64,000 nucleotides of DNA from an uncultured delta proteobacterium (lineage in GTDB: Bacteria > Desulfobacterota > Binatia > UBA9968), in the NCBI GenBank assembly GCA_963755715.1, contig CAVWLW010000033.1, forward strand, positions 32,001-96,000. The letters are read 5' to 3'. Below are positions 16,901-33,059 of the stretch, piece by piece. Within the stretch, counting starts at the first letter, position 1; each line of letters starts with the position of its first letter. Below the pieces are notes generated by a model, which worked only from the letters and a program-made list of their open reading frames with translations, was not told the origin of the DNA and ran no database searches. The position numbers were made by a program, and so were the translations under genes.

Positions 16901-18358
16901 ATGAACGATCTTCACTTTATCGACACCACCGTGCGCGACGGGCAGTTGAGCCTTTGGGCGCTCGGCATGAAAACCGGCGCGATGCTCGCTATCGCCGAGC
17001 AGATGGACCGGTGCGGCTTCGAGTCCATGGAGTTCTTTGGCTTTGCCGGCTACATCAAGATGGTTCGCGAGCACAAAGAAAATCCTTGGGACTGGATGGG
17101 ATTGGGCGCGAAGAAGTTTCGCCGCACGCGGCTGCGCTACCATGGCGGGCTTGCCACCGGCTTCGAGAAAATACCGCGCTCGGTGCGATTGCTGATGATC
17201 GAGCGCGTGGTGGCGCATGGCATTACGCTCACGCGCTCCTCGGATCCGTGGAACGACTACGAAGCCGCGGCGCGAGAGATCGAGGCGCTGAAAAAGCTCG
17301 GCATGGACGTGGTCATCAACATCATCTATTCGGTATCGCCGCGCCACACCGATGCATACTACGCCGAGCGCGCGCGCCAAGCCGCGGCGATCCAGCCTTA
17401 CCGGATTTGCTTCAAGGACGTGGGCGGGTTGCTGACTCCCGACCGCGCCCGCACGCTGATCCCGCTGATCCAACAAAACATCGGCGCCGTGCCGCTCGAG
17501 TTTCACGCCCACTGCAACAACGGCATGGCGCCGTTCAACTATCTCGAGGCGATCAAGCTCGGCGTCGACACCCTGCACACGGCGATACCGCCGCTGGCCA
17601 ACGGTTCGTCGCAGCCGTCGATTTTTAACATCGCCGCCAACGCCCGCGCGCTCGGCTTTAACCCGCTCGTCGATCTCGAAGCGATCAAGCCGGTTGAACA
17701 GCATTTCACTTACATCGCCAAGCGCGAAGGCCACCCGTCTGGCGCGCAGCGCGAATACGATCACGCGCAGTACTTGCATCAGGTGCCCGGCGGCATGATC
17801 TCCAACTTGCGCCATCAGCTGCGCACGATGGGTAGGGAAAATCGCTTGCAGGAAACTTTAGAGGAAGCGGGGCGGGTGCGCGCTGAGTTCGGCTATCCGA
17901 TCATGGTGACGCCGCTAGCGCAGTTCGTCGGCAGCCAGGCGGCGATCAACATCATTACCGGCGAGCGCTACAAGGAGGTGACCGATCAATCGATTCAGTA
18001 CGCGCTTGGGCATTGGGGCAAAGAAGCGCCGGCGGTGATGGATGAAAATATTAAAGACAAGATTCTCAATCGTCCGCGCGCCGACGATTGGCGCAAATGG
18101 TCGCCGCCGGATCTCTCGCTGCACCAAGTGCGGCAAAAATTTGGCGCGCCGGGTGTGTCGGATGAAGAATTGGTTTTGCGCGTGATCGCCGGCGAGGCTG
18201 CCGTCCAAGCGATGCTCGCGGCCGGCGCGCCCAGAGAATATCTCAGTGCGACACAACCCTTGATCAAATTAATCGGCGAGCTTGCAAAGCGCAAAGATTG
18301 TAATCAGGTTTACGTCCGAAAAGGCGAGCTGGTGCTTTGCTTGGAGAAAGAAAGCTAG
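16901..18358 (+). CDS. Carboxyltransferase (pyruvate carboxylase B / OadA-like) without biotinyl domain
   Basis: DTTVRDGQ, FKDVGGLL, FHAHCNNG, HQVPGGMISNL, GYPIMVTPLAQFVG; no EAMK biotin motif. Confidence 0.85.
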   Translation: MNDLHFIDTTVRDGQLSLWALGMKTGAMLAIAEQMDRCGFESMEFFGFAGYIKMVREHKENPWDWMGLGAKKFRRTRLRYHGGLATGFEKIPRSVRLLMIERVVAHGITLTRSSDPWNDYEAAAREIEALKKLGMDVVINIIYSVSPRHTDAYYAERARQAAAIQPYRICFKDVGGLLTPDRARTLIPLIQQNIGAVPLEFHAHCNNGMAPFNYLEAIKLGVDTLHTAIPPLANGSSQPSIFNIAANARALGFNPLVDLEAIKPVEQHFTYIAKREGHPSGAQREYDHAQYLHQVPGGMISNLRHQLRTMGRENRLQETLEEAGRVRAEFGYPIMVTPLAQFVGSQAAINIITGERYKEVTDQSIQYALGHWGKEAPAVMDENIKDKILNRPRADDWRKWSPPDLSLHQVRQKFGAPGVSDEELVLRVIAGEAAVQAMLAAGAPREYLSATQPLIKLIGELAKRKDCNQVYVRKGELVLCLEKES

Positions 18359-18401: not shown

Positions 18402-18438
18402 AAAAAAAGGCCCGAGCTCTTTTAGGCTCGGGCCTTTT
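18402..18438. terminator. Bidirectional Rho-independent terminator
   Basis: AAAAAAAGGCCCGAGC ... GCTCGGGCCTTTT between convergent genes. Confidence 0.85.
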
Positions 18439-18456: not shown

Positions 18457-20113
18457 CTAGTCTAAAGTTTCCAATTTCAAAACCGACGCGCCGTGGTTGC
18501 TGCCGACCCAGAACGTTACCGGCGAAGTATTGTTATCCACGAATACTCGGCGGATGTTGGTCTCCCGCGGCAACAGATAGTCGGTGAACTGGCTGGTCTT
18601 GGGGTCGAGGCGCGTGACCCGGTCGGTCCACATGGAGCCGGCCCAAACTTCACCGTTTTTATCCGGCACGACGTGGTAGGGCGCGCTCCAGGGGATCGGC
18701 ACCTTCCATTCCTGGATTTTCCCCGACTTCGGATCGAGCATGCCGATGCCATTGGCGCCGTATTCCGCGAACCAGAGACGATCCTGCGCATCGAATCGGC
18801 CGCGCCGCGGTCGGGAGCCTTGTGTGATCGTCGAGAAAACTTTGAACTCTTTGGTCTTGGCATCGATACGGCCGATGTTGTTGGCGCCAAACTCGAGCAA
18901 GTAGAGATTGTTCTCACTGTCCGACGGAATGCCGTAGGCGTTGATCGAGCGACCGGCGCCGGGAATCTGAAACTCGCCGAGATTTTCGTATTGTCCTGTG
19001 GCGAGATCGAGCCGATAGATGGCATGGGTGTCCTGATTGTTCGTCCAGACTTTGCCGTCCACGTGAGAATTCGCCGGGCTCACCATCGATTGCTGGGTGT
19101 GATCGCCCTGCCATTCCTTTGGCACCGGGTAAACCTGAAACTTTTCCGTCTTGCGGTCGAACTTGGCGATGCCGCCCTGATACATCAATGACACCCAAAC
19201 ATTTTGTTCCTTATCCAGCTGGAGATCGAGCGTCCCGAGGGGAAATCCCTTTTTCAGCACCGGGATCGGAAATTCCGTTACTTCGCCGGTCTTTGGATTC
19301 AGGCGGCCGATAAACTGTTCGCCGAAATCCGAGTACCAGACAAGCCCTTCGGAGTCTAGGACGACGTCGTGCGGCATCGCCAACTTCCGCGGCAGATCAT
19401 ATTCAGTGATGATCGTGTGCGTGGCTTTGCCCTTGGGCCGCGGCAAAGTTTTGAGCGGAAAACTCTGCTTCGAGTTGTAGCTCGCGTTCACGTTGGCAAG
19501 CCAGGCGCCGAGTTCCATCGGATCGACGCCGCGGGTGCGGTCGCGCTGCACGCTCCCGACAGTCACTTGCGGCCGGAGCGGACTGCTGCCCGGCGCATAA
19601 GTCGACATGCGGCGAAATACTTGCACCCACTCTTCCGCGCTTTTGTTGGCCTTTACGATACGTTCAATGGTGTGGCAGCCGTTACAACTTAGGAGAAAAT
19701 TTTTCTGCTGTTCCGTGCCGGGTATGCTCAGCAGCCATTCAGCGTCGGTTAGTTGCGCCGACGGATTTTCGGCCGCTTTGAGTTTGAGATTGGCGGTGGC
19801 GGTTTTGCCGGCGATCACGTCGACGGTCTTGGGACCGTCGAGATCGTAACCGACCGCACGAATTTTCAGAGCGTAATGGCCGGGCTCAAGTTTTTCACCG
19901 GGAAAGGCAAATCGTCCTTTGGCGTCGCTGACGACATTGACCGTCATCGTCGAGCCGTCTTTTTTGGCGCCGACGACGACGCCTTCCATCAAGCTTTTCT
20001 TTTTGCGAGCTGACTTGGCCGGTCAGTGCTATGGCGCCGTTGGCGTGAACATCGGTGGCGAGTAGTAACGAAAAGACTACCAGGGCGACGCTGGCGAGAA
20101 ATTTGTTCCGCAT
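18457..20113 (-). CDS. Exported carboxypeptidase-regulatory-like domain + c-type heme + Vgb-like beta-propeller protein (frameshift near 19990)
   Basis: Signal MRNKFLASVALV; SDAKGRF...GHY.LKIRAVGY beta-sandwich; CNGCH; repeated G.VW...IGRLDPKTG propeller blades. Confidence 0.8.
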
Positions 20114-20345
20114 TTGAATCCTCCTTAGACGGGCCGTTTTTGGAGATCCGAAGGGAAGCATGCACAAAGTAGCACCGGATCGTTCCCGGCGTCAATTGCC
20201 TTTTTTAACCCCCTATTTAGCTCTTGCGCGCGGGTGGTTGTGCGTTGCTCCGAGAAGCGGGTGTGGTGTATATATGCGCGTGTTGGAGACCTGCTCGACT
20301 CGATGCTGCAACAAGTCCGAGTCCGATCGCGGAAAAGGAGGGAAC

Positions 20346-22507
20346 ATGAAAAAAACAAAATGGCTATTTGTAAGTTCGATGATAAGCGTGGTTGCGATAT
20401 TCTTGATGCTCTCTCCATACCGGCTGAGCAGCCAACAAGGTGCAGTGGTGCGCGTCGACGGTGACGACGTCGGAGGCGTGGTCACCAGCGTGAACGGTCC
20501 GGAGGCCGGCGTCTGGGTGATCGCTGAGACAACGGATCTACCGACCAAGTTTGCCAAGATCGTGGTCACCGATGATCAGGGCCGTTACTTGATTCCCGAC
20601 CTGCCGAAAGCAAATTACAATATTTGGGTGCGTGGTTACGGGCTTGTCGACTCACCGAAAGTTCGGACGGCGCCTGGGAAGACGCTCAATCTCAAAGCGG
20701 TGATTGCATCGACCGATGCCGCGGCGGCTGAATATTATCCGGCAATCTACTGGTATTCGATGCTCAAGATTCCCGACAAGAGCGAATTTCCCGGCACCGG
20801 GGAAAAAGGCAACGGCATGCCGGAAAAACTAAAACATCAAGCTCAGTGGCTCGACGTAGTAAAAACCAATGGCTGCAACACTTGCCATCAACTGGGGAAC
20901 AAAGCGACACGAACAATTGCCAAACAGTTGGGTGAATTCAAATCGTCATCCGACGCCTGGCAGCGGCGCATTCTTTCCGGTCAGGCCATGACGTCGATGC
21001 TCAACGCCGTTGACAGAATCGATTCGAACCGCGCTATGGCCCTCTTCGGCGATTGGACGGACCGCATCGCTGCCGGCGAAGTGCCGAAGTCAAAACCACC
21101 GCGGCCCCAGGGTGTAGAGCGCAACGTCGTCATCAACGTGTGGGATTGGAGCAATCCCAAGGCTTATCTTCACGACGAGATTTCCACCGACAAGCGCAAT
21201 CCGACGGTCAATGCCAACGGGCCGATTTACGGCTCGACGGAATTGAGCACGGATCTTGTGCCGGTGCTTGACCCGCAACATCACAAAGCTTGGGAGATGA
21301 AACATCCCGTGCGCGATCCGAACACGCCGTCCGCGAAGACGGACCCGCTCGCGCCGTCGCCTTACTGGGGCGCTGAGCCGATCTGGGATAGCCAATCGAA
21401 CCAACACAATCCGATGATGGATGAAAAGGCGCGCGTGTGGTTTACGGCGAGAGTCCGTCCGCCGGAGAATCCCGATTTTTGCAAGAAGGGATCGAGCCAT
21501 CCGTCGGCTAAGGTTTTCCCCATCAACAGCGCGAACCGGCATCTATCGATGTACGACCCGAAAACAAAAAAGTTCACCTTGATCAGCACCTGCTTTTCTA
21601 CGCACCATCTGGTTTTTGCGGAAGATGCCGATCACACGCTCTGGACCAGCGCCGGTGGTCCCGCCAGCGGCGTCGTCGGTTGGCTGAACCGCAAGATGTT
21701 CGAAGAAACCGGCGACGAGCAGAAGTCGCAAGGCTGGACACCGCTGATTCTCGACACCAACGGCAACGGCAAGCGCGACGAATGGGTCGAGCCAAATCAG
21801 GCCGTCGATCCGACGAAAGACAAGCGCGTCGCGGCGGCTTTTACGGTATCGCCGTGAGCCCGGTGGACGGTACGGTGTGGGGATCTTCCCAGGGATTTCC
21901 CAGCTCCATCGTGCGACTCAACCCAGGGCCAAATCCTTCGGAAACCGCGCTCGCTGAATTATACGAGGTGCCGCTCGACGCCGGCGCCTACGGCATCCGT
22001 GGGATGGACATCGACCGCAACGGTGTGGTTTGGTCTTCGCTGTCGAGCGGCCATCTGGCGAGCTTTGACCGGCGCAAGTGCAAAGTGCTAAACGGCCCAA
22101 CAGCCACTGGCAAGCACTGTCCCGAAGGCTGGACGCTGCACACGCTGCCAGGACCCAACTTCGAGAGTTTGAAAGAGCCGGGCAGCGCGGAGGCAAGCTA
22201 TTACACCTGGGTGGATCAGTTCGATACTTTCGGTCTGGGCAAAGACGTGCCGATCGCCACCGGCAATCTGAACGATTCTTTGTTGGCTCTGGTGGATGGA
22301 AAGTTCGTCAACCTACGCGTGCCGTATCCTTTGGGATTTTACGCCAAGTGGATGGACGGCAGAATCGACGACCCGAAGGGCGGCTGGAAGGGCAGAGGCC
22401 TGTGGGCGACCACCGGCACGCGGACGCCATTCCACATGGAAGGCGGCAAGGGCACGCGGCCAAAGGTCGTGAAGTTCCAGTTGAGGCCCGATCCATTGGC
22501 GAAATAA
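20346..22507 (+). CDS. Exported mono-heme cytochrome c / beta-propeller protein, paralog 1 (frameshift near 21840)
   Basis: Signal peptide; GPEAGVWVIAET..VTDDQGRY; CNTCH; YLHD, QHN, THH; DTNGNGKRD; ends RPDPLAK. Confidence 0.82.
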
Positions 22508-22595
22508 GTTGGAACTGAACGAACGTCGCTGGACGCGGCTGTGAGTAAATGGTCTGGCGCATGTAAAGTCCTGACGGACGACTAAGGAGATTGCG

Positions 22596-24754
22596 ATGAA
22601 AAACACCAAGACGTTGGGTTTGATGTTGCTGGCTTCCGGTATTGTCGCGCTTATCGCGGCATGCGCGTCTCAGATGGGCGGCGAGCCAAGCACAGGCGCG
22701 GCCGTGCGTATAGATAACGACGACATTGGTGGCGTGGTCACCAGCGCCAATGGACCCGAGGCCGGTGTCTGGGTGATTGCCGAGACCCGCGATCTACCGA
22801 CTCGGTTCGCCAGGATGGTCGTGACCGACGACCAGGGCCGCTACGTCGATACCTGATCTGCCGAATGGGACTTACGACCTGTGGGTTCGTGGGTACGGGC
22901 TGGTCGATTCGCCAAAAGTGAAAGCAACTCCTGGCAAAATCGAAAACCTCAAGGCGGTCATCGCGCCGAACGAAGCCGCTGCGGCTCAATATTATCCGTC
23001 GATCTATTGGTACTCGATGATGAAGATTCCCGACAAGAGCGAGTTCGGGGGCAAGGGGAAAGTTCCCGCTGATATGACGCAGAATGAATACCTGAACTTG
23101 GTGAAGTCAAACGGCTGCGCTAACTGCCATGCGATCGGCAATCGCGCCATGCGCACCTTTCCCGACAACGTGCCGTTCCCCCTGGGCAAGTTCGCAACCT
23201 CCGAGGAAGCCTGGTTTCGCCGCATTCAGTCGGGACAGGGCGGCCATCCCATGTTCGAGACTACGGTCAAGCAACTCGGCACCGCGAATTTGCGTTATCT
23301 TGCCGACTGGACGGACCGCATCGCTAAAGGCGAGCTGCCTCACACGAAGCCAACGCGCCCGCAGGGTGTCGAGCGCAATATCGTCGTCACGACCTGGGAT
23401 TGGCTCGACGACAAACATTACCTGCATGACTTAATCGCGTCTGATCGGCGCTTTCCGAGCGTTAACGCCTACGGCCCTGTGTACGGTTCGACAGAGCTGA
23501 GCATCGATGTCATTCCGATCCTCGATCCCAAAACGAACAGCACCAAAAACTTTCCGGCACCCGTGCGCGACGCCGATACACCTATGGCGATGCAAGAGGG
23601 ACCGATGCAGCCGTCGCCCTATTGGGACAACGAGCGGATTTGGACTAGCAAGGCGAGCAATCACAACGGCATGTTCGACCGCAAAGGCCGCGTCTGGTTC
23701 GCCGCGGCGGTCCGCGGTCCGAACAATCCTGCTTTCTGCCAAAAAGGCTCGGACCATCCTTCGGCGAAAGCGTTTCCGGTTGAGCGCTCGAACCGTCAGT
23801 TTTCGATGCTAGATCCGAAGACCATGAAGTACACCTTCGTCGAGACCTGCTTTAATACACATCATTTGCAATTCGACGCCAATGACGTGCTGTGGGCCAG
23901 CACCGGCGGTGCGAATTCCCCCGTCATCGGCTGGCTCGACATGAAGATTTTCGACGAGACCGGTGACGCGGCCAAAGCGCAGGGCTGGACGCCCTTGATC
24001 CTCGACACCAACGGCAACGGCAAGCGCGACGAATACGTGGAGCCCAATCAGCCGGTGGACCCGACGAAAGACAAACGTATCGTGGCCGGATTCTATGCCA
24101 TCATGCCGAACCCGGCCGACGGCTCCGTCTGGGGTGCCGTACGGACTTTCCCTGGCTCGATCGTGCGCATCGCTCCGGGGTCGAAGCCCTCGGAGACGGC
24201 GCTCTCGGAGATCTACAATATCCCGCTGCCCGGCTTTGGTATCCGCGGGGCCGACATCGACAAGCAAGGCGTCGTCTGGGCGTCGCTCGCAAGCGGCCAT
24301 TTGGCGAGTTTCGATCGAAGAAAATGCAAAGGACCGTTGAATGGTCCCAAGGCGACGGGCGATCACTGCCCCGAGGGCTGGTCGTTCCACCAATATCCCG
24401 GTCCTGGCTTTCAGGGCATAGGCGAGAACAGCGCCGAATCGAGCTATTACTCATGGGTGGACCAGCACAACACGTTCGGACTCGGCGAAGACGTGCCGAT
24501 GTCCACCGGCAACTTACACAACGGCCTGATCGCGTTGAAAGACGGCAAGATGATCCTGCTGCGGGTGCCCTATCCCCTTGGCTTCTACGCCAAAGGCTTC
24601 GACGGACGCATCGACGATCCGAAAGCCGGTTGGAAGGGACGCGGATTGTGGAGCTCGAGTGGCGACCGCGCGCCTTGGCTGATGGAGAACGGCAAGAGGA
24701 TCCAAGCCGCTAGCCGTGAATTTCCAGATGCGCCCCGATCCGTTGGCGAAATGA
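22596..24754 (+). CDS. Mono-heme cytochrome c / beta-propeller lipoprotein, paralog 2 (frameshifts near 22850 and 24695)
   Basis: Lipobox LIAAC; CANCH; YLHD, NHN, THH; colinear with paralogs 1 and 3. Confidence 0.8.
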
Positions 24755-24838
24755 CTCGAGCGCGAACGAAGGAGATGTTGCTCCCGATAGTCCGGCGTAG
24801 GCAGAAACTCTGATGAATCATCGGTTAAGGAGGCGGCC

Positions 24839-27001
24839 ATGAAAAACACGAAAGTGTTGGGTTTGATATTGATCCTTTGTTGCGTCGCCGCGTGGCTGAC
24901 GGTGTATCCGGTGCAGCTCGGCAGTCAACAAGACGCAGGTATACCCATCGATAATGACGACATCGGCGGCGTGGTCACGAGTGCGAAGGGGCCGGAAGCT
25001 GGCGTCTGGGTGATCGCCGAGACCAACGATCTTCCCACCAGATTTGCCAGGATGGTCGTCACGGACGATCAAGGACGCTACGTGATTCCGGAGTTGCCCA
25101 AAGCCAATTACGACATCTGGGTGCGCGGTTACGGATTGGTGGATTCACCGAAAGTGAAAAGCGCTCCCGGCAAGCTTCTCAACCTCAAAGCGGTGGTGGC
25201 GCCAAACGAAGCCGCGGCGGCGCAATATTATCCGGCAATTTATTGGTATTCGATGCTCAAGATTCCTGAAGCCAACGAGTTCGGCGGCAAGGGTGAGATC
25301 CCGGCGAAGCTGACTCAGACCGAATGGCTCAACACCATGAAGAACAACGGCTGCATCGGCTGCCATCAGCTCGGTCAGCTCTCCACGCGCACGTTTCCGA
25401 AGAGCGTCCCGCATCCGATCCACATGGGGACGTCCCAAGAATCGTGGTTCCGCCGCATCCAGTCCGGTCAATCCGGCGAGCAAATGTTTGACGTTATGGT
25501 CAAGCAAATGGGCGGCGCGCCGATTCGCTATTTCGCCGACTGGACGGACCGGATCGCCAAGGGCGAGCTACCGCAGACAAAACCTGAGCGGCCCCAAGGG
25601 ATCGAGCGCAATATTGTCGTCACGACCTGGGATTGGCTCAACGAAAAAAAATATCTGCATGACTTGATAGCCTCGGATCGACGTTACCCGACGGTCAACG
25701 CCTATGGACCGCTCTACGGCTCCACCGAATACAGCACCGACGTGATTCCAGTGCTGGATCCGGTCAAAAACACTGTGTCCAGCATCGTCGCGCCGGTGCG
25801 CGATGACAATATTCCGGAGGCGCTCGGGCCTGGGCATGCGGCGAGCGACAAACTCATGCAGCCGTCGCCTTACTGGGGCGGCGAGAAGCTCTGGGATACC
25901 AAGGCGAACAACCATAACGGCATGATCGATCGCAAAGGCCGCGTTTGGTTTGCGGCAAGATTTCGCGACGCGAATAATCCCGATTTTTGCAAGAAAGGCT
26001 CCGGCCATCCGTCGGCCAGAGTCTTTCCGTTGGAGCGGACCAATCGCCAGCTCACAGTCCTCGATCCCAAGACCGGACAATACTCGTACGTCGATACTTG
26101 TTTCGGCAGCCATCATTTGCAATTCGGCTACGACGCCAGTGAAACGTTATGGACCAGCGGCGGCGGGCAGGTGGTAGGATGGGTCAACACCAAAATGTTC
26201 GATGAGACCGGTGATATCGCAAAGTCGCAAGGCTGGACGCCGATGATTCTCGACACCAACGGCAATGGCAAGCGCGACGACTACGTAGAGCCGAATCAGC
26301 CGGTGGACCCAACTAAGGACAAGCGCATTGTCGCCGGCTTTTATGCGGTGATGCCCAATCCGGTGGACGGCTCGGTCTGGGGCACGTTCCGCAGTAATCC
26401 GGGCGCAGTCGTGCGCGTCGCTCCGGGAAGCAACCCTTCCGAAACTGCTCTCACCGAGATCTATAACGTACCAATGCCCGGTTTTGGGCCGCGCGGTGGT
26501 GATATCGATCGCCAGGGCGTCGTCTGGGTGTCCTTGGCGAGCGGCCACCTCGGTAGCTTCGATCGCAGGAAATGCAAAGGCCCGCTCAACGGACCAAAAG
26601 CGACCGGCGATCATTGCCCCGAGGGTTGGTCTTTTTATAAATATCCCGGACCGGGCTTCAAAGGTCTCGGCGATAATAGCGCCGAGTCGAGCTACTACAC
26701 CTGGGTCGATCAGCACAACACGTTCGGCCTCGGCGAAGACGTGCCCATGTCCACCGGCAACTTGAACGACGGCCTGATCGCCATGAAAGACGGCAAGATG
26801 ATCGTGCTGCGCGTGCCCTACCCGATGGGCTTTTACGCGAAGGGCTTCGACGGGCGCATCGACGATCCTAAGGCTGGATGGAAAGGGCGCGGCCTGTGGA
26901 CCACGAGCGGCGACCGCGCGCCATGGTTGAAAGAAGGCGGTAAAGGCGCCAAGCCGATCGTTGTGCACTTCCAGATTCGCCCCGATCCGCTGGCGAAGTA
27001 A
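24839..27001 (+). CDS. Exported mono-heme cytochrome c / beta-propeller protein, paralog 3 (intact, 720 aa)
   Basis: Signal peptide; CIGCH; YLHD, NHN, SHH; DTNGNGKRD; AGGAGG RBS. Confidence 0.88.
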   Translation: MKNTKVLGLILILCCVAAWLTVYPVQLGSQQDAGIPIDNDDIGGVVTSAKGPEAGVWVIAETNDLPTRFARMVVTDDQGRYVIPELPKANYDIWVRGYGLVDSPKVKSAPGKLLNLKAVVAPNEAAAAQYYPAIYWYSMLKIPEANEFGGKGEIPAKLTQTEWLNTMKNNGCIGCHQLGQLSTRTFPKSVPHPIHMGTSQESWFRRIQSGQSGEQMFDVMVKQMGGAPIRYFADWTDRIAKGELPQTKPERPQGIERNIVVTTWDWLNEKKYLHDLIASDRRYPTVNAYGPLYGSTEYSTDVIPVLDPVKNTVSSIVAPVRDDNIPEALGPGHAASDKLMQPSPYWGGEKLWDTKANNHNGMIDRKGRVWFAARFRDANNPDFCKKGSGHPSARVFPLERTNRQLTVLDPKTGQYSYVDTCFGSHHLQFGYDASETLWTSGGGQVVGWVNTKMFDETGDIAKSQGWTPMILDTNGNGKRDDYVEPNQPVDPTKDKRIVAGFYAVMPNPVDGSVWGTFRSNPGAVVRVAPGSNPSETALTEIYNVPMPGFGPRGGDIDRQGVVWVSLASGHLGSFDRRKCKGPLNGPKATGDHCPEGWSFYKYPGPGFKGLGDNSAESSYYTWVDQHNTFGLGEDVPMSTGNLNDGLIAMKDGKMIVLRVPYPMGFYAKGFDGRIDDPKAGWKGRGLWTTSGDRAPWLKEGGKGAKPIVVHFQIRPDPLAK

Positions 27002-27011
27002 TTCATTACGA

Positions 27012-27053
27012 TCCGGCGGAACCGTTGGTCGCGGTTCCGCCGGAATGTTTTTT
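27012..27053 (+). terminator. Rho-independent terminator
   Basis: TCCGGCGGAACCG / CGGTTCCGCCGGA 13-bp stem followed by T tract. Confidence 0.85.
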
Positions 27054-28060
27054 TACCTCACTCCCGCCGCGTTCAAGTAATTCAGATCGACAAAGCGTTC
27101 AGGCTCCGGCAGAGGCTTTTTGATCGTGTCGGCTTCGCCCATGAAGGTGATGACTTGGGCCAAACCTTTGAGGTTGATCTCGGCTTGTTTTGGCAGGACG
27201 TTACGCTCGGGCTCAAAAAATAGCTTGAGCGTCTGCTCGGCGATCTCGCTTGACGAGTCGGTTGCTTCGACAATTATTTTCACGATGGTTTTGCGATTGG
27301 CCGGATCGCGAATGAATTTCAGCGCGGCGCCGAGGCCGCGCACATAGCGGACGAGCGCTTCTTTATTCGCGCTTGCCCATGAACGGCGCGCCGCCGTGAC
27401 GGTATAGACGAACTCGGGTACGGCTTCGGTGGACAGTCCGAGCAGCCGATTGCCGTCTTTCACCGCTAGCAGATCCTGCGGTTGGCCGAGCGGCACGGCG
27501 TCGCATTCGCCGCGCCGCAAGCATGTGTAGCGCGCCGGCGTTCCCTCGATGATCCTGACGCGGAAATCCTCATTGCGCAGACCGTGGAGGGCGAGCAGCT
27601 TGCGTGTCGAGAGGGTGATTGAGCCGGCTTCATCGGCGAGCCCGATGAGTTTGCCCTTGAGGTCGGCGAAGCTTTTTATTTCGGGCCTCGCCACTAGACT
27701 GTAAATAGGATTGTTGAACTCGGCGGCAATCGCCCTCGCGTCGGAGCCCGCGAGTACAGCCCGGATCAAAAACGCCGTCGCGATATGCGTCACGTCGGCG
27801 CTGCCGTCGTTGAGCGCGTCGAGCATTTTGTCCGAGCCGCCGGGGAGCGGCACGACCACGTGGAAATCCAGCTTCTCGCGGCGAAAGAAACCCTCCCGCT
27901 CGGCAACGGTTACCGGCAATGAAAAAATACTGCGTATCGCGGAGTAGCTTTGCGCGTAGCGCAACGATAGCGTTTGCGCGGCGGCGAATTGGCTGCCCGC
28001 GCAAAGAAGCGTGCTTACGGTGATAAAAAGTGAAAGCGGCAAGCGAGCTCGCGAGCGCAT
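27053..28060 (-). CDS. ABC-type substrate-binding protein, NMT1/THI5/SsuA-like
   Basis: Signal peptide; AEREGFFRRE.L, IKSFADLKGK, ERFVDLNYL. Confidence 0.85.
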   Translation of the reverse strand: MRSRARLPLSLFITVSTLLCAGSQFAAAQTLSLRYAQSYSAIRSIFSLPVTVAEREGFFRREKLDFHVVVPLPGGSDKMLDALNDGSADVTHIATAFLIRAVLAGSDARAIAAEFNNPIYSLVARPEIKSFADLKGKLIGLADEAGSITLSTRKLLALHGLRNEDFRVRIIEGTPARYTCLRRGECDAVPLGQPQDLLAVKDGNRLLGLSTEAVPEFVYTVTAARRSWASANKEALVRYVRGLGAALKFIRDPANRKTIVKIIVEATDSSSEIAEQTLKLFFEPERNVLPKQAEINLKGLAQVITFMGEADTIKKPLPEPERFVDLNYLNAAGVR

Positions 28061-28114
28061 GATGAAATCGGTTTAGCGCGCCGCAGGAATTTCAAATCGA
28101 TTCATCGAAACGAT

Positions 28115-28513
28115 CTACTTCGCGCCGACTTGTTGCATGGTGCACTCGACTTCGACGGTGGCAGCTTTTTTATCGCGCGGTGGGCGCGTGAGCGTGCGAA
28201 TTTGCTTGTAGCCGTCCTTGCTGCACGAAATGGAGACACGGTTCGCGGTGATGTTCTTGCCGAAGCCCGGCAGTTTATAGACTCCGGTGGCGTCGGTGCG
28301 GGCAACGACGGATCCCAGGCCTTTGATCTCAGCCGTGACTTTGGCGTCGCGAATCGTTTTACCGGTGTTGTCCTTTACGAAGCCGAAGAAAGCCAAGCCG
28401 TCGGCTTCATCGTGAATATCGGGCGCATCGCCGCCCGCCCAGACGGGAGAAACAAACAACAGACTCACTGCCATGCCGAGCGCGAGATGAGTTTTAAGGT
28501 GCTGCATCGTCAT
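28115..28513 (-). CDS. Small exported carboxypeptidase-regulatory-like (transthyretin-like beta-sandwich) protein
   Basis: Signal ending VWA; GFVKDNTGK.IRDAKV, TDATGVY; two Cys; start trimmed to MTMQH. Confidence 0.75.
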   Translation of the reverse strand: MTMQHLKTHLALGMAVSLLFVSPVWAGGDAPDIHDEADGLAFFGFVKDNTGKTIRDAKVTAEIKGLGSVVARTDATGVYKLPGFGKNITANRVSISCSKDGYKQIRTLTRPPRDKKAATVEVECTMQQVGAK

Positions 28514-28539
28514 TCGCCCTTCGTTCAGAACCGCCTTAT

Positions 28540-28878
28540 CTAGCGCATAAAAAAGCCGCTCAACATATAGCTGAAAACAACCATCGACGCTATCGGTACG
28601 GCCCAGGACCAACCGGACCAGAGCCGTTGCGCGAGCCGTTCGGGCATGAATCGAGCCAGAGTCGCCGCCGCGAAGGCGACAATGGCGGCTGTCGCTATCC
28701 AGCCGTACCAATACATGGCGGGACCGTCGCGCGGCGGCTGTACCAGCGGGCCGAATTCTTCGAGCGCCGGGTGATAAGTGAACAGCGCATAATTATTTTG
28801 CACCGCGATTAGATAACTGACTGAGTAAACTACGGTGAACACGACGGCACTGGAATGGAACGAGCGCGACGCGATCAT
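28540..28878 (-). CDS. Hypothetical membrane protein (3 TM)
   Basis: Hydrophobic helices; loop LFTYHP..GPAMYWYGW; ATGA overlap with the upstream gene. Confidence 0.75.
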   Translation of the reverse strand: MIASRSFHSSAVVFTVVYSVSYLIAVQNNYALFTYHPALEEFGPLVQPPRDGPAMYWYGWIATAAIVAFAAATLARFMPERLAQRLWSGWSWAVPIASMVVFSYMLSGFFMR

Positions 28879-29339
28879 GATCCGAATCCTCTGATGTTGT
28901 TAAGAATATGTCCGACCAAAAAGCTCCACCACACGATAAACGCAAAGGTTGCGGTGATGACGGCGCGGGCGCGGGTCTCGCTTTCGGCCAGCGGTTGGCG
29001 CCAGAAGGACCAGTAAGCGGGGAGCATGCCCAGCCCCAGCGCGACGAAATGCTCTTTCAATTCGAATGCACCGTTGGCCTTCCACAAATCCAACTGCTCG
29101 AGCACGACGCGAACAGCCATGCGATATTCGCCGTAGATGATGCCTCCAAGGATCGCCGTGGCGACGTACAGAAAAATGATCGCCGAAACGTAGGACGGCG
29201 CGGACACGGCGCGCACGCGACCGACGAATGAGTCGGCGGTTTTGCGCGCCGGCACCAGGACACTGATGGCCTGGTGTGTGATCGAGCCGAGCAGCGCCAC
29301 CGCCAACAGACCGTGCACGATGAGCAAAAAGGTCGTCAT
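28875..29339 (-). CDS. Hypothetical 4-TM membrane protein with four His (possible b-type cytochrome)
   Basis: H9 and H22 in TM1, KEHF, VGHILNN; AGGAG RBS. Confidence 0.75.
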   Translation of the reverse strand: MTTFLLIVHGLLAVALLGSITHQAISVLVPARKTADSFVGRVRAVSAPSYVSAIIFLYVATAILGGIIYGEYRMAVRVVLEQLDLWKANGAFELKEHFVALGLGMLPAYWSFWRQPLAESETRARAVITATFAFIVWWSFLVGHILNNIRGFGS

Positions 29340-29520: not shown

Positions 29521-29976
29521 ATGGTGTTGATTAATCGTCGCACGTTGCGCATTGAATGGGGTCAGTGCGATCCCGCCGGGATCGTTTTTTATCCGCAATA
29601 CCTGATCATCTTCGACACCAGCACCGGCTGCTTGTTCGAGCGCACCGGCTTGACGCCTTCGGCGATGCGTAAAAAGTATCGCATCGTCGGCATGCCGATC
29701 GTCGAAGTGGGAGCGCGCTTTGTCATGCCCTGCCGATTCGACGACGACATCGTCGTCGAGAGCGAGGTTGGTGAGTGGGGCCGCAGCAGTTTTACGGTGC
29801 GGCATCGGATTGTCAAAGCCGGCGAGCTGGCGCTGGACGGTTTTGAGAAACGGGTTTGGGCGGCCGCAGATCCTGAACGCCTGGGCGCGATCAAGGCGCA
29901 AGCAGTGCCGGCGGAAATCATCGCGAGTCTATCCGATCCGAGCGGCGCGACAACTATAAAATTGGATCAAGCATAA
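29521..29976 (+). CDS. 4-hydroxybenzoyl-CoA-type hot-dog thioesterase
   Basis: IEWGQCDPAGIVFYPQY motif. Confidence 0.88.
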   Translation: MVLINRRTLRIEWGQCDPAGIVFYPQYLIIFDTSTGCLFERTGLTPSAMRKKYRIVGMPIVEVGARFVMPCRFDDDIVVESEVGEWGRSSFTVRHRIVKAGELALDGFEKRVWAAADPERLGAIKAQAVPAEIIASLSDPSGATTIKLDQA

Positions 29977-29989
29977 TGGAGGCGGAACG

Positions 29990-30971
29990 ATGGAAACGTT
30001 AGCGTCTAACGTAACGGATCAAGTTGCTTCGACAAAACAACCGCGTTTCTCCGGCATGAGTCATGTGAGTTTGCCGTGCCGGAATCTTGAACGAGTCGAA
30101 GCTTTTCTATTCGCAAGTGATGGGTGGCGAGCTGTTCCACGAGATCGCCGGCTTCGTCGAGTACCGGATAGCAGACATCGTCATTGGGCTGTCCGAGCAG
30201 GAGGAGGGCTGGACCGGTCCGGACGACGAATATCCGCACTACGCTTTTTATCTCGACGGACAAAATTTCGAGCTAATGAAGAAATGGCTCGATCGCTACG
30301 CTGTGCCGAATTATCCTTACCGGCGTGACCAGACCGCGCTGATTTATTTTCGCGATCCATCGGGAAATCTTTTCGAGCTTTACTGTGACCGCGGCTATGA
30401 AGGCATCGAGTCTTTGCCATTGGCGCCGCGAAGGGGAGGGCCGGCGATCGATTTTCGCCGGCTCAATTATGTGTGGAATCATGGATACGCCGGGTCCGGC
30501 GTCGATCCCGAGATTCAGAAGCCGCAGCTCAGCGCTTTTGCGCACGCCAGCCTTTTCTGCGCCGATCTCGAACAGGCGAAGCGCTTCTTCACCCAAGTGC
30601 TCGGCGGCGAGCTGATTCACGATGTCGACGGCTTCGCCGAAGTGCGCGTCGCCGGGATCATCATCGGTCTCACGGTTCGGCCCGGGCGCACTACGGCGCG
30701 CAATGCCGAATTTCCCCATTATGCGTTTTTCGCGGAAGCAGAAGATTTTCTGCCGATGGTGGCATGGCTTCGTCAAAACGGGGTCGTCACGACCGAGCCG
30801 TGGACACGCGATGGCGTCAAAGGCCTTCTTTATTTTCGCGATCCGGCGGGAAATCTCTTCGAGATGTATTGCCGTCAAATCAAAGACGCAGCGAGCTTCG
30901 CGCGCGGCGCGAAGCAAGGCGGTAACTACACGATCGACCTTGCGGCGTTGGAGTATCGCTGGCCTAGTTAG
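29990..30971 (+). CDS. Tandem VOC-family protein (frameshift near 30088)
   Basis: Two internal repeats H.SL...FF.QV.GGEL.H...PHYAF...YFRDP.GNLFE. Confidence 0.82.
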
Positions 30972-31108: not shown

Positions 31109-33059
31109 TTACGCTGACGCGCGGGTCAGTTGGTTCGATTCGCTTATTTTCGGCGCCGGCAAAGAGCTATCGTCGGCAGTGAGCTGAACCAATTGCGATA
31201 ATTGGTCGCGCGCTTCGCTCAATGTAGCGACCACCCGGTCGGCACCGACCGAAGTCAAAGAAGCCTGCGCATATTCCAAACTTCCGGAAAAATTCCAGCG
31301 GCCGACGAGGATTTTGACGTCGGCGCAACGGGCGCGGATTCTCTTGCAAAGATAACGGGCTTGCACCAGACCGCCGGGCGCGATCGCGCCGATACAAACC
31401 AGCCGCGGCTGCTTCTCTTCGACCAGCGCAACCACTTCGGCGGCGAGCATATTTGGCGAGGCGACGTCGATCGGATAACGGCGTGAATCGAGAAGCTTTT
31501 CGAGCGCAAGCAAGGCGATTTCGTCGGCCTCTCCGTCGGCGGGGAAAGCGAATATTTGAAAAACCTGGTCTGGCGGAGGAGCGGCCGGTTCGACCGATTC
31601 GGTCTTCTTTTCCGGCGATTTTTTAGCCGCGGCTTGTCGGTCGTCGAGATCTTCCAAGATTGCCCGGGTGCCATCGTGAACCGATTTCTGGTCTTTCTCG
31701 CTCAACTGATCACGGCGCCGGTCGCTCTTGCCCCGGCTCAAAGCCGGTATGAAAACGTCGTCGCAAAGCTCTGCGATCGAGTGGGTTTGCAAATATTCCT
31801 CGACGATTTCTTCGCCTTCGTCCTGATCGCTTGCCAACATGCGCTGATAGAAGTTGACGTAGGTTTCCAATGCCGGCGCATCGCTCAGCAGCACCGTCAC
31901 GAAGGCCATCTCTGGAACATATTTGGCGAACACCACCAAGCACACCGTGAGCGGCGTCGCCAAGACGAGCCCGACCGGTCCCCATAGCCAGGTCCAGAAT
32001 GCCGCCATGACCAGCACGGCTATCTCGGATACGCCGGCGCTTTCGCCGTATAAGCGCGGCTCCAAGAAAAAATTGATAATCAGCTCGATGGCGAGGAAGG
32101 AGCCGACGATAATCAGAGATGTCATCCAGCCGGGAAAATAGGCGAGGCTCAGAGCCGTCGGCAGCAAGGCGGCCGACCCATGGCCCGACATAGGGAATAA
32201 AGCGCAGCATCGTTGCCAAAAAACCCCAGAGCAGCGCATAAGGAACGTCGAGGAAAAAAAGTATGACGCCGATGGCAAGGCCGAAACCGCTGTTGATCAG
32301 CAGCTGTGCGAGCAGATAATGGCTGATTTTCTGCCCTGCTTCTTCCATCGCCTTGGTTGTAATCGTCAGACGACCGTAGCCCGAAACCCGGATCAGGCGG
32401 TTGCGTAGCTCTTCCCGTTGAATGAGCATGAAGATAACGAGCACGATGGCCAGCACCGCGCCAGCAAGGCGTTCGACGATCGGACCGGTAGCCAGCGGTA
32501 TCGGCCAAAATACCGAGTGCTGGTCGGAGGCAACCACCACCGGCCGCGGCGCTGGTTCTCGCGCCGCCGTTTCCGGTTTGTTCAGTTCTTTCTTGACTTC
32601 ATCGACGGTCTGTTCGACTTTTTCCAGTGCGCCGCCTCTTTTGAAGTCGCGCAAATCGGCAACCTTTTGCTGAATGTTTTTTCGATATTGCGGCAGGTCG
32701 TTGGCCAAAGCGGCAATCTGCCACGCCACGATCCAGCCCACGCTGAGTAGGATCGAGAAGGAGAAAACCGTCGCGATGACGACCGAAACAACCCGCCCCA
32801 AACGCAAGCGCTCGAGCGCGCTTACGACCGGGTTCAGCACGAAAGTGAGCAGCAGGGCGACGGCGATGGGCACCAATACTTGCTGCGCCCAATACAGAAT
32901 GGCGACGATCGTCACTACAATAGGCAGAAAAATCCAACCCGGCATTTTGGCGCTGGAGCGAGGGAGCAGCGTCTGCTTTGTCGGGACCGAGGGTGGCGGC
33001 GTTGCTTCTTCCGGCGGAGTGTCCGCGCTTGAGCTCTTGGTGAAAAGTGTCGACAACAT
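31109..33059 (-). CDS. AI-2E family transporter with C-terminal soluble (B12-binding-like) domain, frameshift near 32185
   Basis: LVPIAVALLLTFVLNP, LRFIPYVG, EPRLYGES.GVS, WTWLWGPVGL.LATPLTVCL. Confidence 0.85.

Follow-up and report, generated by a model that had tools for sequence, protein, structure and literature searches.

In the cytochrome cd1 nitrite reductase NirS and in NirN, both periplasmic, a cytochrome c domain is followed by a propeller, the eight-bladed d1 domain. Among propeller enzymes with separate cytochrome partners, six-bladed pyrroloquinoline quinone (PQQ) enzymes are paired with c4 in the available part of bioRxiv 10.64898/2026.07.10.737718, and the available part of PMC9456337 gives TcDH/CytC552 and PQQ-MDH/CytcL as precedents for a propeller enzyme with a monohaem acceptor. 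We analyzed a locus of 11 kb (positions 18457–29339) in a stretch of 64,000 nucleotides, hereafter the window, from an uncultured delta proteobacterium of the class Binatia (contig CAVWLW010000033.1). It codes for four large exported proteins with a β-sandwich, one CxxCH haem motif and a β-propeller each, and for an operon of two membrane proteins, which we call TM4H and TM3, a small exported β-sandwich protein and a substrate-binding protein (SBP). An original prediction, made from the DNA alone, had taken all eight genes for one undescribed periplasmic redox system. We found a large, expanded enzyme family with an optional, usually single-copy membrane module and not a fixed eight-gene complex, because most propeller genes occur without the membrane genes. 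We favour the reading, with chances that we judge slightly short of even, that the large proteins are periplasmic oxidoreductases passing electrons via their own haem to a TM4H–TM3 dimer, which would be an optional partner of many paralogues.

Exported haem-c propeller proteins of two types

Gene A (18457–20113) lies on the minus strand, divergent from genes B (20346–22507), C (22596–24754) and D (24839–27001) on the plus strand. Each of the four proteins carries a signal peptide, a PF13620-type β-sandwich, a single CxxCH in the coding frame (at 19686 on the minus strand and at 20874, 23116 and 25352, respectively) and a β-propeller, in this order. They fall into two homologous types, i.e., the Vgb-like type A, with a CxxCH cytochrome domain and a seven-bladed propeller, and three 720-residue paralogues of type D. 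Gene D is intact, with its CxxCH at residues 172–176, two Cys pairs and a DxNxNG-type loop. Genes B and C share about 59–66% and 72% identity with it, respectively, and the three differ in loops and pocket residues, as would be expected from different substrates. The four had been described together as haem-propellers, and types A and D do align end to end (hhalign 99.1% over 448 columns). Common to both are the haem motif, the linker RP-x-G and, where the propeller begins, a His-Asp pair. Gene A, however, stands apart as a second type on the other strand, with only about 22–24% identity to gene B over ~300 residues.

Single-base indels interrupt gene A (19993), gene B (21837/21841) and gene C (22849 and 24696). 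Short-read contigs of four independent studies carried the compensating base, in four of four runs at 19993, 21837/21841 and 22849 and in all three runs that covered 24696. Since these contigs lack the indels, all four are errors of this assembly, and we rejected A, B and C as pseudogenes.

Conservation was counted in 34 type A rows (numbering from 19992) and 36 type D rows (numbering from 24839). Both types show signs of a class I cytochrome c, i.e., a CxxCH in an exported protein together with a conserved distal Met (34/34 and 36/36 rows). Invariant residues of type A include C103, C106, H107, M129, H208, D209, Y353, R396, R397, Y439, M454, N479, R481 and N499; those of type D are C172, C175, H176, M216, H274, D275, E297, H359 and H426, with H425 and H570 kept in 34 of 36 rows. 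Arg, Tyr and the His-Asp residues make up the propeller centre of type A, and the type D propeller is rich in His, Asp and Glu (H274, D275, E297, H359, H426, H570). Haem-domain alignments gave only scattered weak matches in Pfam and weak ones in the PDB (E 0.003–0.4 overall). For type A the latter were PscC, cytochrome c553 and the α haem domain of QHNDH (E 0.03–0.43), which is consistent with a His/Met electron-transfer haem, without proving one.

By sequence, the type A propeller is clearly homologous to Vgb, the seven-bladed virginiamycin B or streptogramin B lyase (PDB 2z2n/2z2p/2qc5). It reached 107.9 bits in PF24684 against a cut-off of 50, and its closest solved structures are these lyases (2qc5, E 3e-27 with the single sequence; 2qc5/2z2n, E 2e-36 with the profile). 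This likeness would suit non-redox enzymes or ligand or gas sensors, i.e., Vgb-like lyases or hydrolases with a regulatory or structural haem, and a membrane pair acting as transporter or signalling partner of the SBP. We consider such a role improbable. Type A differs from Vgb in being exported and in having two extra domains, one of them with the CxxCH, and it scores 74.7 bits against an NCBIfam cut-off of 600. In the blade-7 register, Asn479 and Asn499 stand at the places of Glu268 and Glu284, which we take to be the Vgb Mg ligands. The catalytic His270 of Vgb (H270A is inactive according to the title of PDB 2z2p) becomes invariant Tyr439 in the profile alignment and Arg481 in the blade-7 register (34/34 rows). 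Because His270 is kept in neither register and the score is far under the cut-off, we rejected type A as a streptogramin lyase or Vgb resistance enzyme. Moreover, no row of either type lacks the CxxCH or the Met, which argues against a non-redox role.

Type D gave no sequence match in NCBIfam or the PDB, and its one match in Pfam is PF13620. An AlphaFold model of gene D, of low confidence (pLDDT 56.5, from a too-uniform alignment), predicted a β-sandwich, a helical haem domain and a propeller, and matched generic propellers in Foldseek, Vgb among them (E 2e-6), although a more specific fold match may exist; it is too poor for placing the His/Asp/Glu cluster in the tunnel. Matches to PDE4 in PDB sequence searches with the D, TM4H and small-protein profiles were discarded as chance, and these profiles gave nothing useful there.

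Two unlinked type A paralogues (51–53% identity) are present elsewhere in this genome (G000:C41 16453–18126 and C72 2332–4017), among genes for SBPs, amidohydrolases, tripartite transporters and decarboxylases; a gene for a small CxxCH protein lies 2 kb from the second. We also noted a third, divergent propeller subtype with the same domain order and 24–28% identity to type A in 14 loci, plus one in this genome (G000:C76 10748–12085). Often it immediately precedes TM4H or follows a small class I cytochrome.

A membrane pair linked in one direction to the propeller genes

The genes for TM4H (28875–29339, 154 residues), TM3 (28540–28878, 112 residues), the small exported protein (28115–28513, 132 residues) and the SBP (27053–28060, 335 residues) form a minus-strand operon, in which the first two overlap by ATGA. 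The operon converges with gene D at a 14-pair hairpin (27012–27044) with a T-tail on the plus strand. We regard this hairpin as a likely terminator for its position between the convergent stop codons and not for the site count, because a scan found 26 terminator-like sites against 19.3 ± 4.4 in shuffled sequence. The eight genes, the ATGA overlap, the YHP..PAMYWYGW loop of TM3, the two-Cys exported β-sandwich, the NMT1-type SBP and the terminator all lie where they had been predicted.

Linkage was followed in 80 TM4H loci, the best among 364 relatives with confirmation in GTDB genomes, and in the 80 best metagenome loci of type D from a set of at least 591. The genome sets consist of drafts and related genomes, and the counts are descriptive. 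TM3 directly followed TM4H in 80/80 loci and in 20/20 further regions (genomes partly overlapping), and the small protein gene was found in 70 of the 80. A propeller gene lay within the 10-kb flank in 54/80 loci, in 48 of them within 1.5 kb and in 47 also co-directional; among loci with more than 4 kb on both sides the count was 36 of 48. Gene order varied, with type A or D on either side. By record title, of which some are evidently unreliable, the loci belong to Binatia, Beta-, Alpha- and Gammaproteobacteria and Acidobacteriota, so that the recurrence of propeller genes near the membrane genes, which the original prediction proposed to look for in distant phyla, was observed in several classes.

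Viewed from type D, the picture is different: TM4H was present in 4/80 metagenome loci and in 2 of the 31 that span at least 10 kb. In the genus itself (31 genomes), D occurred in 27, A in 12 and TM4H in 14, all of them with D (0/4 without D), and 13/27 D-bearing genomes had no TM4H match. Of 201 sampled genomes from one alphaproteobacterial family, 42 had TM4H, 57 had A or D and 40 had both, i.e., TM4H occurred in 40/57 propeller-bearing genomes versus 2/144 others, which leaves 17/57 without a TM4H match. Here 28 of 50 TM4H matches had a scored propeller no more than 10 kb away, which is a minimum given that only 5–7 candidates were scored per genome. Some enzyme-bearing genomes without a TM4H match are 98–100% complete. 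TM4H has one or two copies per genome, versus up to seven or more scored propeller paralogues and tens of candidates. The same layout, with A divergent from D genes in tandem, was seen in six relatives from the genus (G012:C82, G041:C96, G017:C130, G011:C525, G021:C280, G045:C20), of which three (G012, G041, G017; drafts of 91–94% completeness) had no TM4H match.

The linkage is real but one-way: the membrane pair mostly comes with a propeller, while most propeller genes stand alone. Thus, membrane and propeller genes are neither unlinked nor independent as seen from TM4H (54/80 loci; 40/42 alphaproteobacterial genomes), whereas most type D loci have no membrane gene nearby, and the whole locus does not hold up as the single eight-gene system of the original prediction. 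Propeller genes are so frequent in these genomes that neighbourhood to the operon might be incidental. The 47 co-directional genes within 1.5 kb, in varied orders and several classes, and the scarcity of TM4H in genomes without a propeller largely refute this, and we give it next to no chance.

The twenty further regions, chosen for having no scored propeller nearby, contained, besides TM3 in all, the small protein in eight, a c′-like cytochrome in five and a propeller fragment in two. In five further genomes, where the TM4H locus was mostly without a propeller, four had a propeller elsewhere and Microvirga zambiensis had none. Other genes that recur beside TM4H code for c-type cytochromes: a c′-like helical monohaem protein (9/80 loci) and a small cytochrome of class I (6/80). 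Recurrent neighbours gave no pointer to the substrate. The c′-like protein (155–170 residues, exported, helical, with a C-terminal CxxCH and a conserved QPRH motif, without a Pfam match) stands beside the membrane pair in Alphaproteobacteria; we noted 14 loci, three of them without a propeller, and one unlinked homologue in this genome (G000:C6 near 78600).

TM4H was modelled confidently as a four-helix bundle (pLDDT 92) with generic fold matches only, and alignments of TM4H and TM3 gave scattered weak matches but no family in Pfam. Conserved TM4H residues are H9, H22, Q23, G65, Y69, K95, E96, H97 and H144. Among 143 rows, K95 and E96 were kept in all, H9 in 135 (8 gaps, i.e., kept wherever aligned), H97 in 132 and H144 and H22 in 131 each. 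By the helix limits of the model, H9, H97 and H144 lie at one membrane face, which by the positive-inside rule is probably periplasmic, and H22 lies alone at the other. Two bis-His pairs, one per membrane face, as in a dihaem cytochrome b conduit, were not found in TM4H. Because three of the four His share one side, a two-haem transmembrane wire formed by TM4H is doubtful. An electron conduit, the role originally proposed for the membrane proteins, is nevertheless plausible.

A TM4H–TM3 heterodimer was predicted with ESMFold2 (ipSAE 0.77, where the highest of three controls had 0.00; at least 92% of contacts shared between runs; partner pLDDT at least 83), which supports a complex of the two membrane proteins at the level of models. 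The mark for such predictions was reached by 116/157 solved pairs and 2/215 mismatched pairs, rates that apply only roughly here. In the model, TM4H helix 3 packs into TM3 and H97 touches the invariant TM3 Y22, with K95 and H9 outside the listed interface. TM3 has a Met/Tyr/Trp-rich loop and no invariant His (H36 in 45/60). A search for TM4H fusions among proteins of 539–2000 residues gave one record (P0391), joined to a Vgb-like propeller and possibly a read-through error. A DUF6644 gene adjoins some TM4H–TM3 copies in which TM3 looks interrupted (G151:C3 1025175; G230:C11 324583).

Three His clustered with Lys and Glu at one membrane face, the TM3 loop and the acidic, His-rich N-terminus of the small protein would also suit a maturation module, in which the propeller enzymes would receive a metal (copper, as with CopD/CopC) or a cofactor of haem type from TM4H, TM3 and the small protein. 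The low copy number of the operon relative to the enzymes fits such a role, as do the His-bound copper in the TcDH propeller tunnel (PMC9456337, available part), a weak TM4H profile likeness to DUF2269 (H9) and DUF6644 (K95, W137; probability 2.5–5%), and the automatic Atlas name DUF2269 of a neighbour cluster. A maturation factor would be expected wherever the enzymes occur, yet the 13/27 and 17/57 enzyme-bearing genomes lack a TM4H match, near-complete ones included. Also, neither TM3 nor the small protein has an invariant His, and there was no CopD/CopC match in Pfam. We hence regard maturation as rather unlikely. A shared electron acceptor would explain many enzyme paralogues, one optional membrane pair and c-type cytochrome neighbours better than a maturation factor that the enzymes cannot do without or a complex of fixed composition.

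Accessory genes and a proposed electron route

The small exported protein belongs to PF13620 (E 1.5e-6), and its two Cys are kept in 61/62 and 58/62 homologues. It had been described as the domain type that starts all four large proteins. This holds for the common PF13620 fold, but the likeness to their first domain is only distant (hhalign 44.7% and 32.1%), and what is conserved behind the signal peptide is a stretch rich in acidic residues and His, not the DIHDE string. Its proposed role as docking adaptor found nothing in its favour beyond this very common fold, and the gene is missing from 10/80 TM4H loci.

The SBP has a signal peptide and matches NMT1 (E 9.9e-13), the NMT1/THI5-like profile PF09084 (48.9 bits versus a cut-off of 20.5) and PDB 3qsl (E 1.5e-13); no permease gene adjoins it. 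An orthologue with 56–79% identity was found in 35/80 TM4H loci, versus 53% and 37% for the best other long matches in this genome. By this identity gap, the SBP belongs to an orthologue group of its own that accompanies the operon, and we rejected a chance neighbour from a 250-member family. NMT1-type SBPs are expanded in this genome (254 tblastn matches of at least 200 residues). Orthologues without a permease after the operon, together with a conserved polar cluster of TM4H on the cytoplasmic side (H22, Q23, Y109, T129), would favour the transport or signalling role considered above, against which stand the absence of the SBP from over half of the loci and the recurrence of other c-type cytochromes beside the membrane pair.

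For the preferred route, from propeller to membrane pair, the exported proteins provide a CxxCH, a propeller and conserved central residues. A small substrate would be oxidized in the propeller centre, in type D at a putative His/Asp/Glu metal site (copper or iron), in type A in an Arg/Tyr-lined pocket with the shared His-Asp pair that might accept an anionic substrate or cofactor. The electron would then pass to a low-spin haem c with His/Met ligation (M129 in A, M216 in D). In the last and weakest step, TM4H–TM3 might hold one haem b or metal at the periplasmic face (H9 with H144 or K95; E96/H97 against TM3 Y22) and hand electrons to quinone. Other cytochromes c would take the electrons in genomes without TM4H–TM3. 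The small β-sandwich protein is a likely metal or cofactor chaperone and the SBP a likely ligand-binding protein, both presumably accessory.

The same parts list would serve the reverse flow, in which TM4H–TM3 as quinol oxidase feeds periplasmic reductases that work like cd1 nitrite reductase, from haem c to a catalytic centre in the propeller. The order of c domain and propeller is that of cd1 and NirN, and the centres rich in Arg, His and Tyr could hold a non-covalent tetrapyrrole. Against this, there was no cd1/NirN match by sequence or, in the Foldseek search with the gene D model, by fold, and no haem d1 or N-oxide genes were among the recurrent neighbours; moreover, so many paralogues would be easier to reconcile with various donors than with a single acceptor. 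Reverse flow therefore appears quite improbable to us.

Returning to outward flow from the propellers, we also formulated a more far-reaching version, which we hold to be less likely than not yet well possible: an undescribed periplasmic redox platform of soil bacteria, with a very large family of fused haem-c propeller oxidoreductases whose cofactor centre would differ from PQQ, from haem d1 and from the copper clusters known so far, with TM4H–TM3 as a seven-helix heterodimeric cytochrome to the quinone pool, and with its own chaperone and binding protein. Type D comprises at least 8,000 clusters at 90% identity and TM4H more than 2,000. These families are common in Binatia, soil Proteobacteria and Acidobacteria, sometimes with many paralogues per genome, and their annotations go no further than carboxypeptidase-regulatory-domain, Vgb or hypothetical protein. 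Should they be periplasmic dehydrogenases, they would provide an unrecorded route of small-molecule oxidation in abundant uncultured soil bacteria. With gene D and WP_099514940.1 of the cultured Microvirga ossetica, intact copies are at hand; the parts are small and the idea is directly testable.

DNA of the locus was found in soil and rhizosphere metagenomes, and close homologues that carry names are proteins of Candidatus Binatia or Deltaproteobacteria metagenome-assembled genomes. Four metatranscriptomes had short contigs over the locus, some near-identical; much of the depth came from paralogues of other organisms, and we did not use it as expression evidence. Upstream in the window, a gene for a stand-alone OadA/PycB-like carboxyltransferase domain (16901–18358) converges with gene A at a hairpin (18405–18437) flanked by A and T runs. 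Beyond TM4H lie divergent genes for a 4HBT thioesterase and a two-domain VOC/glyoxalase protein (29521–30971; Fos-family scores weak and far under the cut-offs), and a gene for an AI-2E transporter fused to a B12-binding-like domain (31109–33059), split across two frames, probably by another assembly indel. A 4HBT thioesterase gene is near the operon in one other locus (L024), too.

Comparison with known systems

We found no published description of these proteins in titles and abstracts, a search whose coverage left out subscription papers, and the Binatota survey PMC8262859 mentions neither propeller nor virginiamycin nor carboxypeptidase in its main text. No characterized family matched on the tests run, in agreement with the module having been called undescribed.

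TM4H resembles HemJ, DUF2269, DUF6644 and CopD-like proteins in its four-helix bundle, a His early in helix 1 and an invariant Lys in helix 3. It differs from them in its obligate TM3 partner and in profile probability (hhalign 0.3–5% with HemJ, DUF2269 and DUF6644). As a yardstick, HemJ and DUF2269 reach 95% with each other, and DUF6644 only 15–30% with these two. A HemJ-like His/Lys haem in TM4H is therefore suggestive only. Compared with NirS and NirN, the large proteins have an extra N-terminal β-sandwich and gave no match to them in Pfam, NCBIfam or PDB sequences.

The PQQ quinohaemoproteins and the six-bladed PQQ(-lanthanide) dehydrogenases with cytochrome partners likewise combine a propeller with a haem c relay in soil bacteria, and the Arg-rich centre of type A adds to this likeness (bioRxiv 10.64898/2026.07.10.737718, available part). 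We found no PF01011- or PF07995-type match, and the best PQQ-family score was 13 bits for TIGR03606 versus a cut-off of 435. No pqqC exceeded its cut-off in this genome or in one relative (G014), although three Alphaproteobacteria have one; uptake of PQQ is possible. Several TenA/PqqC-like genes of this genome fall under the pqqC cut-off. The preprint, as far as available, contains no mention of seven-bladed or carboxypeptidase-domain proteins.

Among copper propeller oxidoreductases (TcDH, MTO, NosZ), none was among the listed matches to type D. TcDH, a periplasmic propeller of seven blades whose tunnel holds a metal centre, passes electrons to the monohaem cytochrome c552 (PMC9456337, available part). 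Our proteins had no sequence or Foldseek match to TcDH among those listed; their metal is putative, their haem is fused to the enzyme, and a dedicated membrane pair is linked to it. We therefore conclude that the system is a member of none of these families on the tests run and would be closest in its working to propeller dehydrogenases of the periplasm that hand electrons to a monohaem cytochrome, i.e., a familiar redox logic built throughout from unstudied protein families.

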